DNA from: a virus
Strand: one strand, 5' to 3'
DNA: 18,787 bases
UHGV virus genome: UHGV-0373676
Shown here: one piece after another, positions 1 through 18,787 of the stretch
How positions within the stretch are numbered: the first letter of the stretch is position 1
How the letters are laid out: each line of letters opens with the position of its first letter
Notes under the pieces: generated by a model
Seen by the model: only the letters and a program-made list of their open reading frames with translations
What the model was told of the DNA's origin: nothing
The model's database searches: none
Made by a program: the position numbers and the translations under genes

Positions 1-246
1 ACATATTCCAATGTTGTTGGAAATGATAATACTGCGCAGTATTATTCCGGTAACGTTTCACAAACAGTAACGATAGAAAAAGCAGGTATATACGAGGCAA
101 AGGCCTTCTTTGAAGGATTGGATAAGGCTGGAAGCAATGACGGAGAAGCCATTAATTTATCTGTCACGGACGGAAATGAAACAACCAAGGTTTCGAATGC
201 AATTAAATTAGATGAAACACTCCACGTCCGTCATCCCAGCCACGAA
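1..246 (+). CDS. 3' end of a plus-strand gene running in from outside the window; hypothetical, Ser/Thr/Asn/Gly-rich C-terminus that could be a fibre-tip-like domain
   Basis: Frame 1 is open from position 1 to a TAA at 244-246 with no in-frame ATG; about 35% GC by hand count; converges on and overlaps the tail-fibre ORF by 44 nt. Confidence 0.3.
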
Positions 247-709
247 TAAATTCACCGCGTAAATCAGGCAATTTATTTGTCGGATAAACCTTTGCCAGTT
301 CCGGGTATTCTTCAGCAGAAAAAGCCGCACCGTTGCATTTCAGCCAGCCAGTAGGCGGTGTGGCTGAAGGCCACGGAACAGGCACACCAACGGGTAATGC
401 CGAACCTTCTCCCAAACCAAGGTTTTCGAGAGCCGTTTTCACCGTGCCATCCGATTTGATATCACCAAACGGATTCTTGCGGCTTAACAGCAGAGCACGA
501 AGCGCGGTAAGCAACTGGTCGTTTCGCCCCTTCTCCAGGCTGGCACCGGATGCCTCTACCACGCTGCAGAGTTCTTCCTGCAACATATCAAAGTAGTCAT
601 CATCCAGATCGGTGGCAGGTGTGCCGGTCTGGGGGTTACCACGGGTAAAACCGTTCTTACCCGCGCCGAACTTATCCTTCTGCGCGGTTTTCGTGTCTAT
701 ACGATGCAT
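203..709 (-). CDS. Short tail fibre protein (Mu S / e14 StfP-like), apparently ending within or just after a tail-collar-like motif
   Basis: 168 aa; sits immediately after the gp48-like gene; C-terminal motif [24 protein letters not shown]...[17 protein letters not shown] resembles the phage tail collar domain; ORF stops 9 codons later. Confidence 0.65.
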
Positions 710-5773: not shown

Positions 5774-6151
5774 TTACCCTGCTATTTTTTGAGCCAGATG
5801 AGCCTGCAATTTATAAATGTTTGCTCCTTTACTGAACTGTTTTTTTATCGGTTCTGCAATACCAGAAATCCATATCTTCATTTCAGCATCAAGATCAAGA
5901 TGCCCGGCGGTTTCAATAGAAAAGTTTGTCACAGATTTATAAGGAATCGAACGATACTCTACTTTTTTCCCTGTGACACCCTGCTTATCAATAAAAATTA
6001 ACCTTCTGTTAGTCAGAATAATTTGGTCACGAATGAGTTTATAGGCAAGTTCGACATTTTCTCCCTCACCTAAAACAGCCCCTAATTCCTGTTGTGCATC
6101 TGATGCATTAATTTCACCGGCATTACCTATAATGGCATGTAACAGCCCCAT
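5774..6151 (-). CDS. Bacterial PH-domain (bPH/YokE-like) protein; AT-rich moron
   Basis: 125 aa from the ATG at 6151 (ORF track begins 27 codons earlier at 6232, inside the tape-measure gene); AAGGGA Shine-Dalgarno 5 nt upstream; N-terminus MGLLHAIIGNAGE and motifs GKKVEYRSIPY and KIWISG resemble bPH proteins as I recall them; about 36% GC versus about 47-67% in flanking lines. Confidence 0.65.
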   Translation of the reverse strand: MGLLHAIIGNAGEINASDAQQELGAVLGEGENVELAYKLIRDQIILTNRRLIFIDKQGVTGKKVEYRSIPYKSVTNFSIETAGHLDLDAEMKIWISGIAEPIKKQFSKGANIYKLQAHLAQKIAG

Positions 6152-6187
6152 AGATTTCCCTTCAGTTGATAACAAACTTAAAGACAA

Positions 6188-6214
6188 ATTATATCTGGTT
6201 CCGTCATCTGCCAA
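6188..6214 (-). promoter_or_regulatory. Putative sigma70-type promoter for the moron (TTGGCA, 15-nt spacer, TATAAT)
   Basis: Minus-strand TTGGCA at 6214-6209 and TATAAT at 6193-6188, about 35 nt upstream of the moron ATG and overlapping the tape-measure stop codon; the spacer is shorter than the 17-nt optimum. Confidence 0.3.
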
Positions 6215-8039
6215 TATGCGTATAGCCAACATCGTGATTCATATCAAAACCGCTGGATCGCGTTTCCATAACCCGCATACCCGGAGGCGAATTCACAAAA
6301 GAGACCTTGATCTCACCGTCAACTTTTGGCGCAGAAGCTTTGTTAATCATGAAGGGATTCGAGCCTGTGGCACCGGAGGCGTTGTTTGCCTGAGCCGGAT
6401 CCACCGCCGGATAAGGTGTGTATCCCCGCGCCGGTATTCCCGTCCCATAAGCATCATAAGCACCCGCGCCCCACTGCGCCGAGTTAATGGCATCGACCGT
6501 GTCACCGGAACTGTCGGTAAACCACTCAATAATTGGCTTCAGCTTATCCCACATATCCTGAAACCACTTAACAACCGGTCCCCAGTTATTGATCACCATC
6601 CCCAGCGGCGACCAGGCAAAAACCTTCTTCAGAAGTTCCCAGCCAGCCTCAAAATAAGGACCAATGGTTTCCCAGAGCTTCTTGAAATAAGGTCCGACAA
6701 CATCCCAGTTAGTGATAATTAATCCCGCAGCCAGGGCTATCGCCGTCGCAATCATGCCAATCGGCGTCATCGACATGATCCTGCTGACAATGCTGATGGC
6801 ACTGCCCACGCCCATCAATCCCAGTTTCAGAATCGCAAGACCGGCAGCAAGCCCGACGACGCCGCGAATAACCCGGGGATTTTCATCCGCAAACTTCGTG
6901 AATTTCTCCCCCAACTCCCCCAGCCACTGCGTGATGTTCTTAGCGTCACCAGAAAATGCGCCGCCAATAGCCGCAAGGCCGTTGGTTGCGGTCCCCGTCA
7001 TTGCCTCCCACAGGTTGGACAGCGTACCAAGCTGAGCCTGAACACGTTTATTCAGGCTGGCCTGTTTATTCATCTTCTGCTGGATCTGATCGTAGCCATC
7101 CTTTCCTTTATCGATCAGGGCATTGACCACCTGAAGGGTTTCGGCATCATCACCAAATATTGCCTTAAGTACGCCTGTTCGCTTAACGTCGGTCAGTTTT
7201 CGCAACTTTGCCAGTTGCCTGAACATGTTATCAAGACCGCCAAAACTTCCTTTGCCGTCAGTAAAATCGAGCTGTACCCCGAGTTTCTGGCGGGCCATGA
7301 CTTTATTGACGTCCCTAATTTTCTTAACACTTAATCCGGACTGGATAACTTTTCGCAGGGCATTACCTGCCGACTCCCCGTTCATCCCCATCTGATCCAT
7401 CATGACGCTGATGGGGGCAAGACTCTGTGCAGCCTGAAGACCGTCCTTATTCACCATCTTCAGAACAGAGCTGGTTTTAGTGAAGAATGACAGCATGTTG
7501 GTGTCGTCAACGCCCAGATAAAACGCCTTCTGAATTGTGTCGAACAGCCCCATCATGTCTTCTGAGGCCGTTCCGGTAGCATCCTGCATCTTTGCGGCAA
7601 ACTCGGCAGCCGCTTCCGGTGTTTTTTTCAGTTGTACCGCAAGATAAGCTGTCGCTTTACCCACACCACCCAGAATGTTTTCTGCCGGGATCCCCTGACG
7701 CACCAGCATCTGCATCATGTTCTGGAAATCAGCCGTTGTACCGGGTAGCTGGTTACCCAGGCCAATAGCCAGTTTATTGATGTCCTGAAAGCTCTTTCCG
7801 ACCTCACCGTTCGCATCCATCATGGCAACTTTCAGCCCGGTGGCGGCGTTTTCCTGATCGGCATAAGATTTCAGGGAAAGCGTCAGACCCGCAGCCAGTC
7901 CGCCACCAAGCGCCAGCCCACCCTGTGACGCTTCTTCCGCCTGGCGTTTAAATCCCCGGATTTTCTTTTGCATTTTCGACAGCGCGGGAGAAAGCCTGTC
8001 GACACCGGTGATCAACGCCTTAAGCTCAAATTCAGCCAT
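6204..8039 (-). CDS. Tail tape measure protein
   Basis: 611 aa; Gly/Ala-rich N-terminal region, long helical middle and hydrophobic C-terminal segments; sits directly downstream of the chaperone frameshift region. Confidence 0.85.
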   Translation of the reverse strand: MAEFELKALITGVDRLSPALSKMQKKIRGFKRQAEEASQGGLALGGGLAAGLTLSLKSYADQENAATGLKVAMMDANGEVGKSFQDINKLAIGLGNQLPGTTADFQNMMQMLVRQGIPAENILGGVGKATAYLAVQLKKTPEAAAEFAAKMQDATGTASEDMMGLFDTIQKAFYLGVDDTNMLSFFTKTSSVLKMVNKDGLQAAQSLAPISVMMDQMGMNGESAGNALRKVIQSGLSVKKIRDVNKVMARQKLGVQLDFTDGKGSFGGLDNMFRQLAKLRKLTDVKRTGVLKAIFGDDAETLQVVNALIDKGKDGYDQIQQKMNKQASLNKRVQAQLGTLSNLWEAMTGTATNGLAAIGGAFSGDAKNITQWLGELGEKFTKFADENPRVIRGVVGLAAGLAILKLGLMGVGSAISIVSRIMSMTPIGMIATAIALAAGLIITNWDVVGPYFKKLWETIGPYFEAGWELLKKVFAWSPLGMVINNWGPVVKWFQDMWDKLKPIIEWFTDSSGDTVDAINSAQWGAGAYDAYGTGIPARGYTPYPAVDPAQANNASGATGSNPFMINKASAPKVDGEIKVSFVNSPPGMRVMETRSSGFDMNHDVGYTHIGR

Positions 8040-17793: not shown

Positions 17794-17842
17794 GGGGCGG
17801 GCAGTCCGGAAGACGTCAGGTCACAGGGATTTGACCCGCCCC
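17794..17842. other. GC-rich symmetric element GGGGCGGG-N33-CCCGCCCC between the HNH and terminase small-subunit genes; candidate cos / packaging site
   Basis: Perfect 8-bp inverted arms at 17794-17801 and 17835-17842 with nested GGTCA/TGACC symmetry inside; GC-rich motif loosely reminiscent of lambdoid cohesive-end sequences; position matches cos in HNH-terminase phages. Confidence 0.3.
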
Positions 17843-17869: not shown

Positions 17870-18220
17870 TCACTTTAACCGTTCACGGGCCGTCTTCGCC
17901 TTATGACACGGCCAGCACAGACTCTGCAGATTACTGTCTGCATCAGTGCCGCCATGCGCTTTAGGGATGATGTGGTCAACGGTTTTCGCCTCACGCACCA
18001 CACCGGCACGCAGACATAACTGACACAGGCCTTTGTCACGCTTCAGTACACGTTCACGGATAGCATCCCATTTCGAACCGTAGCCGCGCTGATGACGGGA
18101 TTGTCCTGGCTTGTATTGCTTCCAGCCTTCGCTTTTGTGGCTTTCGCAGTAGCCTGACGGGTCTGTGGTGGTATGGCGGCAGCCACGAACACGGCAGGCT
18201 TTTGGGATTCGTGATGGCAT
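17870..18220 (-). CDS. HNH endonuclease (terminase-associated); start moved to the ATG at 18220
   Basis: 116 aa from MPSRIPKACRVRGCRHTT; GGAG 7 nt upstream; motifs CRVRGC, DHIIPKAHGG and CWPCH are typical of phage HNH nucleases. Confidence 0.8.
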   Translation of the reverse strand: MPSRIPKACRVRGCRHTTTDPSGYCESHKSEGWKQYKPGQSRHQRGYGSKWDAIRERVLKRDKGLCQLCLRAGVVREAKTVDHIIPKAHGGTDADSNLQSLCWPCHKAKTARERLK

Positions 18221-18340
18221 ATGTACTCCAATGAAGAAGCCACCGACATAGCCTCCTCCATTCATCGTGAAACTATTTTCATCTACCCAGTAATGAATTC
18301 TTTGTAGAGTTGTGATCAATACAACTCACTAATGGAGAGG

Positions 18341-18362
18341 CTTGTCCAACACGTTGGACAAG
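18341..18362. repeat. Perfect 22-bp palindrome CTTGTCCAAC-AC-GTTGGACAAG; putative regulator-binding site or hairpin
   Basis: 10-bp perfect inverted arms around a 2-bp spacer, in the AT-rich intergenic region upstream of HNH; followed on the plus strand by a T-rich tract (TTTCCTGTTTGATTT). Confidence 0.5.
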
Positions 18363-18442
18363 TTTCCTGTTTGATTTACTGGACACTATAGAAGGACAGA
18401 ATGCCTTCATCACTCGAATAACATCAATTAAGGAGGTTCAAC

Positions 18443-18565
18443 ATGTTTCATTCCACAAATCATCAGGCTGTAATTATGGCTGCATCAGCTTGTGCCACAG
18501 ACCTTTTCCGCTTCACTTTAAGCCTGATTCATTTCTACCTGACCGGCTCGCCTCTATCTTTTTAA
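18443..18565 (+). CDS. Hypothetical 40-aa ORF with a consensus Shine-Dalgarno
   Basis: TAAGGAGGT at 18429-18437, ATG at 18443, TAA at 18563-18565; MFHSTNHQAVIMAASACATDLFRFTLSLIHFYLTGSPLSF; no homolog recognised. Confidence 0.3.
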   Translation: MFHSTNHQAVIMAASACATDLFRFTLSLIHFYLTGSPLSF

Positions 18566-18730
18566 TCCCCGCTTTATCCAAATTGCATTGCCATAATGCC
18601 GACAACAGACTGACATTCAAATCCTGACTACCTCCAATAGTCTGACCGTACACCTATATAGTTTTAATTTTCATCAATCCATTTAACTATCGTTTAATTG
18701 TTGTCACATAGGATTCTGCCGTTTTTAACA

Positions 18731-18787
18731 ATGCAGGATAATAAGATGAAAAAAATGTTGTTTTCTGCCGCTCTGGCAATGCTTATT
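18731..18787 (+). CDS. 5' end of an iss/bor-family lipoprotein gene (serum-resistance type); continues beyond the window
   Basis: Reads MQDNKMKKMLFSAALAMLI... from the ATG at 18731, with an alternative start at 18746 (MKKMLF...); this matches the Iss/Bor signal-peptide N-terminus as I recall it; on the opposite strand to the late genes, as bor is in lambda. Confidence 0.55.
   Translation, partial: MQDNKMKKMLFSAALAMLI

Follow-up and report, generated by a model that had tools for sequence, protein, structure and literature searches.

The bor gene of bacteriophage lambda (J02459, 46459-46752, complement) encodes a 97-aa protein of the Pfam family PF06291 and lies between the lysis and the packaging genes, convergent with Rz. 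Lambda Bor is an outer-membrane protein and bor raises the serum resistance of K-12 lysogens (PMC1151598), with bor being transcribed in lysogens and bor lysogens resisting guinea-pig serum (PMC1151598, PMC7067206). A second member of the family, iss, is carried by ColV/IncF plasmids. APEC O78-9 becomes sensitive to serum when the iss of its ColV plasmid is deleted; the strain also transcribed a chromosomal iss allele, but overexpression of that allele or of bor did not bring back survival in serum (PMC4313913). A 2025 review gives two proposed mechanisms, one in which Iss interferes with the membrane attack complex and one in which group 4 capsule synthesis requires it (PMC12846712, citing Binns 1982 and Biran 2021), and states that group 4 capsule is reduced when iss is lost (PMC12846712, citing Biran 2021).

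The locus described here lies at the right edge of a viral DNA of 18,787 nucleotides (UHGV virus genome UHGV-0373676), the whole of which is referred to as the window. The features discussed are the following.

18746..18787, plus strand: 5' end of iss, likely coding sequence, consisting of the first 14 codons (MKKMLFSAALAMLI) of a Bor-family prolipoprotein gene
18731..18745, plus strand: upstream in-frame extension MQDNK, an alternative start that gives a 102-codon reading of iss; contains AGGA
18633..18730, plus strand: non-coding DNA travelling with iss, the presumed site of its own promoter
18516..18641, minus strand: remnant of an SfIV-type o-spanin (Rz1-like), last 42 codons, detected by tblastn
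17870..18220, minus strand: HNH endonuclease gene, the left neighbour of iss, in the packaging module beside the presumed cos (Pfam HNH, 60 bits; annotation in C9 and 30EVA2)
203..709, minus strand: open reading frame with a tail-collar domain, within the tail-fibre region at the left end

The plus-strand sequence from 18731 to 18787 is ATGCAGGATAATAAGATGAAAAAAATGTTGTTTTCTGCCGCTCTGGCAATGCTTATT; its translation is MQDNKMKKMLFSAALAMLI, a run of 19 codons whose frame is still open at the end of the window. The first-pass annotation had placed an Iss/Bor-type lipoprotein signal peptide here; its coordinates and peptide were reproduced exactly on retranslation, and the similarity it proposed is borne out by 57 of 57 nucleotides shared with prophage iss and 56 of 57 with plasmid iss. 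From 18746 onwards, all 14 residues in the window are those of Iss and 10 of the 14 are those of lambda Bor. The N-terminal signal of the family, comprising MKKML, a hydrophobic core, and the LI of LITGC, is present in the window. The chromosome of E. coli C9 (NZ_CP010129), in which PGAP calls iss at this position, is 99.9% identical to the last 988 nt, with a single mismatch at ∼18594 and 100% identity over the last ∼190 nt. At 97-99.8% identity, the same 988 nt are also matched in hundreds of further complete E. coli genomes, and all 20 of the best records listed have two features under the match, 'HNH endonuclease' and 'iss: increased serum survival lipoprotein Iss'. None of the complete E. 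coli genomes matched at 100%, and a 40-mer that includes the window-specific base at ∼18594 had no match in IMG/VR. The exact 57-mer is present in at least 120 IMG/VR viral contigs. Near-identity to the annotated iss of C9, together with the occurrence of the 57-mer in so many viral contigs, argues that the frame did not arise by chance. Judged from the sequence, iss, which encodes a Bor-family outer-membrane lipoprotein, begins in the final 57 bases of the window, and by far the most probable account of the locus is that the 5' end of iss is seen here as a passenger gene ('moron') of an SfV-like prophage.

An alignment of six alleles, comprising the window, the IncF iss, lambda bor, K-12 DLP12 bor, O157 bor, and the CREC_5 hybrid, bears on the position of the start codon. 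The ATG at 18746 is invariant in all six, and the codon at 18731 is ATG in the window, the IncF iss, and the hybrid but ATC in lambda, DLP12, and O157 bor. Alignments of bor-type alleles to the C9 gene begin at query base 16, which is the ATG at 18746, and the PGAP start in C9 and 30EVA2 maps to the same codon, giving the 97-aa form. The sequence AGGA (GGGA in lambda) lies at 18735-18738, 7 nt before this ATG; no purine-rich or Shine-Dalgarno tract was found in the window sequence ahead of the ATG at 18731. Translation most likely starts at 18746 (MKKML...), with AGGA as the putative ribosome-binding site, and hence 14 of the 97 codons (42 nt) probably lie in the window rather than 19. The count of 19 codons given in the first-pass annotation holds for the open frame from 18731 but not for the likely coding sequence, which has 14 from 18746.

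The signal peptide consists of the n-region MKK and the h-region MLFSAALAMLI (mean Kyte-Doolittle 2.46), and the window stops at Ile(-3) of the lipobox, with Thr(-2), Gly(-1), and Cys(+1) falling past its end. A lipobox, LITGC, had been predicted just beyond the edge, and it is present in C9, in 30EVA2, and in 120 of 120 contigs among the matches listed, where TGCAQQ follows the 57-mer in frame; the pattern used was [LVI][ASTVI][GAS]C after a positive n-region and a hydrophobic h-region. The precursor, MKKMLFSAALAMLITG with cleavage before the C that follows, is likely a prolipoprotein. In the Gram-negative lipoprotein route, Lgt lipidates the cysteine, signal peptidase II removes the signal peptide in front of it, and Lnt then N-acylates the cysteine; Iss would be expected to undergo the same three steps. 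The residue at +2 decides Lol sorting (the '+2 rule'), with Ala rather than Asp directing the protein to the outer membrane. Since residue +2 in the relatives is Ala and not Asp, the mature Iss of ∼80 residues is predicted to be sorted by Lol to the outer membrane, in agreement with the reported location of lambda Bor.

Beyond the window, the gene is read in its relatives. In C9 and 30EVA2 the frame continues as MKKMLFSAALAMLITGCAQQ... to give the 97-aa protein WP_000738423.1, annotated as Iss; the C9 frame past the window edge runs to ...LITGCAQQTFTVGNKPTAVTPKETITHHFFVSGIGQEKTVDAAKICGGAENVVKTETQQTFVNGLLGFITLGIYTPLEARVYCSQ and a stop codon, and the coding sequence in the relatives ends at the equivalent of window position 19039. 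The best match to the whole window, 30EVA2 (NZ_CP138419; 98.1% identity over 98%), encodes an identical WP_000738423.1. This protein of the nearest relatives scores 106 bits against Pfam PF06291 Lambda_Bor (cutoff 25), a match that belongs to the relative because the profile spans residues 19-95 of 97, wholly beyond the window. It also matches PHROG 260, 'Bor-like outer membrane protein', with an E-value of 4e-59. The expectation that the full reading frame would prove similar to Iss/Bor is supported in C9 and 30EVA2 by this Lambda_Bor score, by 91.8% identity to lambda Bor, and by 99% identity to the IncF-plasmid Iss. Matches to lipoprotein signals in NCBIfam (LpoB, HslJ, and the Leptospira LA_3781 family; E 0.002-0.1) fall far below the cutoffs and are uninformative, as this collection has no Iss/Bor model. 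No solved structure with detectable similarity was returned by a PDB sequence search with Iss, and PADLOC gave no defence-system match to Iss.

The 5' end in the window is of the Iss type in the alignment. The full allele is most likely WP_000738423.1, which is encoded by 58 of 115 readable contigs with the 57-mer among the matches listed and by both nearest relatives, although this assignment is less certain than the intactness of the gene. A lambda-like Lys in GIGQKK is found in 20 of 115 contigs with the exact 57-mer among the matches listed, which suggests that recombinant alleles are common. In the CREC_5 hybrid, the upstream DNA with its ATG is of the iss type and the signal-peptide coding sequence is of the bor type, which points to recombination inside the iss/bor locus.

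The DNA upstream of iss contains two blocks that are invariant in the six alleles, GTTTAATT (18692-18699) and CACATAnGATTCTGC (18705-18719). A consensus sigma-70 promoter scan of 1 kb around iss found none. Two candidates picked by eye, TTCATC-17 nt-TTTAAT as a -35/-10 pair (18670-18698) and TAGGAT (18709-18714), which has no -35 element, are weak and are not claimed. The ∼100 nt upstream are presumed to hold the promoter of iss because this DNA travels with the gene. Similarity to the window is lost at 18630-18649 in 76 of 120 contigs and at ∼18660 in 21 more, among the matches listed, which indicates that the unit moving with iss includes these ∼100 nt.

The left boundary of this unit is marked in the window itself. 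SfIV gp53 matches the window end by tblastn on the minus strand (34 of 42 residues identical, E 7e-20), and SfIV and the window align collinearly between 17811 and 18632; past that point the two diverge, and similarity returns within the endolysin gene. Lambda homology (93.9%) extends from 18692 through bor, Rz, and part of R, and IncF-plasmid homology starts at 18621. The spanin remnant and these homology breakpoints suggest that iss arrived within a lambda-type bor-Rz-R module; by comparison of the sequences, an iss-Rz-R module of lambda type replaced the original SfV/SfIV-type spanins, and the o-spanin remnant marks the recombination joint. The remnant provides a clear local example of passenger genes crossing unrelated phage backbones within the lysis module.

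Two further elements lie in the same region. A 40-codon open reading frame on the plus strand (18443-18565; MFHSTNHQAVIM...) has a strong AAGGAGG ribosome-binding site ahead of it; it is a 'hypothetical protein' in phage vB_EcoS-640R1, is not called by PGAP, and had no match in Pfam, PHROG, or PADLOC. As it also overlaps the spanin remnant on the opposite strand, it may be spurious. A hairpin with a 13-bp stem (GAGGCTTGTCCAAC ACGT TGGACAAGTTTC) and a T-rich tail is present on the plus strand at 18337-18366, in the spacer between HNH and iss, and is conserved in C9. It is terminator-like on this strand and might serve as putative insulation against plus-strand read-through.

All late genes identified in the window lie on the minus strand, as the first-pass annotation had stated in describing iss as opposed to the late operon. 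Pfam identifies genes for a tail collar, a DNA circularisation protein, tape measure, sheath, capsid, terminases (both the large and the small subunit confirmed), and HNH, and portal and baseplate genes were assigned by collinearity with C9 and 30EVA2. The AT-richness claimed for the segment is evident, with a GC content of 35.5% over the final 228 nt and 39.6% between HNH and iss as against 54.1% in the late operon; the iss coding sequence of C9 has 41.5% GC. After iss, the C9 and 30EVA2 prophages and phage vB_EcoS-640R1 carry convergent Rz, then endolysin and holin genes, and the C9 prophage is located at tRNA-Thr, beside proA. The placement of the gene resembles that of lambda bor, in that the orientation against the late genes and the packaging side are read in the window, and the convergent Rz side is read in C9, 30EVA2, 640R1, lambda, DLP12, and O157, that is, only in relatives. 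The likeness to lambda proposed at first reading extends to the gene family and its placement but not to the phage: the host is an SfV-like myovirus, with a contractile tail and an HK97-type head, that has acquired a lambda-type bor-Rz-R module. The ends of the linear SfV and SfIV genomes map to the junction of window positions 17810 and 17811, and those of SfI and SfII lie within ∼60 nt of it. Because the two former ends coincide there, cos is presumed to lie between the HNH and the small terminase genes, in a G+C-rich stretch (...gacccgcccctccccca...).

Elsewhere in the window, a 152-aa open reading frame on the minus strand (5774-6232) encodes a bacterial PH domain (Pfam bPH_1, 162 bits; PHROG 7115, function unknown) and is flanked by the tape measure and DNA circularisation genes. 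Strain 30EVA2 has this frame and the otherwise collinear C9 prophage lacks it, and hence it may be a second passenger gene; PADLOC gave no match to it. The tail-fibre region at positions 1-407 is the least conserved part of the window relative to the nearest prophages and SfV, with matches beginning at 222 or 406-408, and this left-end divergence is the usual host-range mosaic.

The ∼100 nt of its own upstream DNA and its orientation against the late operon lead to the expectation that iss would be transcribed in the lysogen from its own promoter, independently of lytic late transcription, as lambda bor is. Outer-membrane Iss would then modestly raise survival in serum and complement, either by interfering with the terminal complement complex or through the requirement for group 4 capsule. 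By analogy with lambda bor and plasmid iss, we infer that the prophage gene is a lysogenic-conversion gene for serum resistance, as was first proposed. The phenotype of the allele in the window is the weakest link of this explanation.

Alternative readings of the locus concern its start, its completeness, and its function. Initiation at the ATG at 18731, giving a 102-aa precursor (MQDNKMKKM...), is unlikely. This ATG is in frame and shared by the iss-type alleles (window, IncF-plasmid iss, and CREC_5 hybrid), and the frame from it is open in 120 of 120 viral contigs among the matches listed; against this, the bor alleles of lambda, DLP12, and O157 have ATC there while the ATG at 18746 never varies, the AGGA serves 18746 whereas 18731 has no Shine-Dalgarno tract, PGAP prefers the 97-aa form, and the longer precursor would place an Asp in the n-region, where an acidic residue is atypical of signal peptides. 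The choice has little consequence because both precursors would yield one mature protein after cleavage by signal peptidase II; under the standard lipoprotein pathway the mature protein should be identical from either start. The second alternative is that only a 5' remnant is present, the gene being truncated or disrupted past 18787 by an insertion sequence, a deletion, or a frameshift, with no functional lipoprotein made. The 14-19 codons are all of iss that the window displays, and such remnants exist: in E. coli E110019 (NZ_CP035751, 506383-507713) the first 79 nt are shared and an IS3-family element then interrupts the gene after ∼21 codons, the copy lying in lambdoid surroundings (nohD/ylcI) and being annotated as a partial 'lipoprotein bor', which demonstrates that a 5' end identical to that of the window can belong to a dead remnant. 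Among the matches listed, disrupted frames of 58 and 76 codons account for 2 of the 115 contigs readable to a stop; the other 113 have an intact frame of 101-102 codons from the first ATG, as do all 19 readable copies whose upstream context is that of the window. Of 3937 matching E. coli records, 3922 (99.6%) keep at least 80% of the gene, and the two closest relatives, C9 and 30EVA2, are intact and encode identical proteins. Loss of the gene past the edge is, on these counts, highly improbable, and as inferred from the relatives iss is almost certainly intact beyond 18787.

With iss taken as intact and starting at 18746, what remains to be weighed is whether the lipoprotein confers serum resistance. 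A minority possibility, but one to be taken seriously, is that it is made and expressed without doing so, having been selected for another envelope role, such as capsule or O-antigen assembly or outer-membrane integrity, or for phage biology. This reading draws on the failure of overexpressed chromosomal iss or bor to rescue the plasmid-iss deletion in APEC O78-9 (PMC4313913), on the lowering of group 4 capsule when iss is lost (PMC12846712), and on distribution, as 3499 of the 5426 complete E. coli genomes carry iss/bor, among them the laboratory strains B and C41(DE3) and K-12 derivatives, a range far wider than that of the invasive pathotypes. In the loci compared, iss/bor always adjoins the spanin gene Rz. 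However, a single residue in 97 separates the predicted prophage protein from plasmid Iss, such that a qualitative difference in activity would be surprising, the negative complementation result comes from a single strain (PMC4313913), and lambda bor, at 92% identity, does raise the serum resistance of K-12 lysogens (PMC1151598). The adjacency to the spanin gene and the presence in about two thirds of complete E. coli genomes also underlie a stronger version, to which we give little credence, in which prophage iss is not a complement-resistance factor but has an envelope or phage function, with serum resistance a strain-dependent side effect. If this were true, the role of the Bor family would lie in capsule or O-antigen assembly, in stabilisation of the lysogen's outer membrane, or in exclusion of other phages. 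The reading of iss as a lysogenic-conversion gene for serum resistance is retained here with the reservation about phenotype given above.

For annotation, the appropriate label for the right edge of the window is iss, 5' end (Bor family), with a likely start at 18746 and a 97-aa precursor. The label marks the prophage as carrying a widely used but weakly predictive virulence marker of E. coli, and the presence of chromosomal iss should not be equated with demonstrated serum resistance. Beyond correct annotation the importance of the locus is small, and the first-pass annotation needs correction on three points only: where translation starts, which kind of phage is the host, and how firmly the function is claimed.

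Set against the known systems, the locus shares with lambda bor the ATG at 18746, the conserved upstream blocks, and a gene product whose nearest full-length relative is 91.8% identical to Bor. In lambda, however, the signal peptide (MKKMLLATALALLI) differs at 4 of 14 residues, the upstream ATG is ATC, and homology to the window begins only at 18692; lambda is a lambdoid siphovirus, in contrast with the contractile-tailed, SfV-like phage of the window and its HK97-type head. The ColV/IncF plasmid iss (AP026464, pMTY1887_NA1) has all 19 codons and 56 of 57 nt, the exception being a synonymous G/A at 18760, and has upstream DNA in common with the window from 18621, interrupted by a 4-nt deletion ∼70 nt upstream of the gene. 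Its full protein is 99% identical to that of the nearest relative, with one of 97 residues differing (Phe in the plasmid, Leu in the relative). The plasmid copy lies beside IS2, whereas the copy in the window lies in an apparently complete prophage late region. The late operon of Shigella phage SfV is 97.4% identical over 90% of the window and shares the HNH gene; in the alignments compared here, SfV and SfI match only up to that gene, and SfIV up to 18632. SfIV has no iss and carries its own spanin pair at the position of iss, of which the window keeps the last 42 o-spanin codons. The closest counterparts are the prophage iss genes of C9 and 30EVA2, which are identical to the window over its 57 nt and 130 nt upstream, have the HNH left neighbour and the SfV-like backbone in common with it, and carry Rz, endolysin, and holin genes to the right. 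Over the whole window these records are only 98% identical, which indicates that it derives from a strain other than either. The gene, the kind of place it occupies, and the kind of prophage that carries it are all known already, and PGAP annotates iss in hundreds of genomes with the same context.
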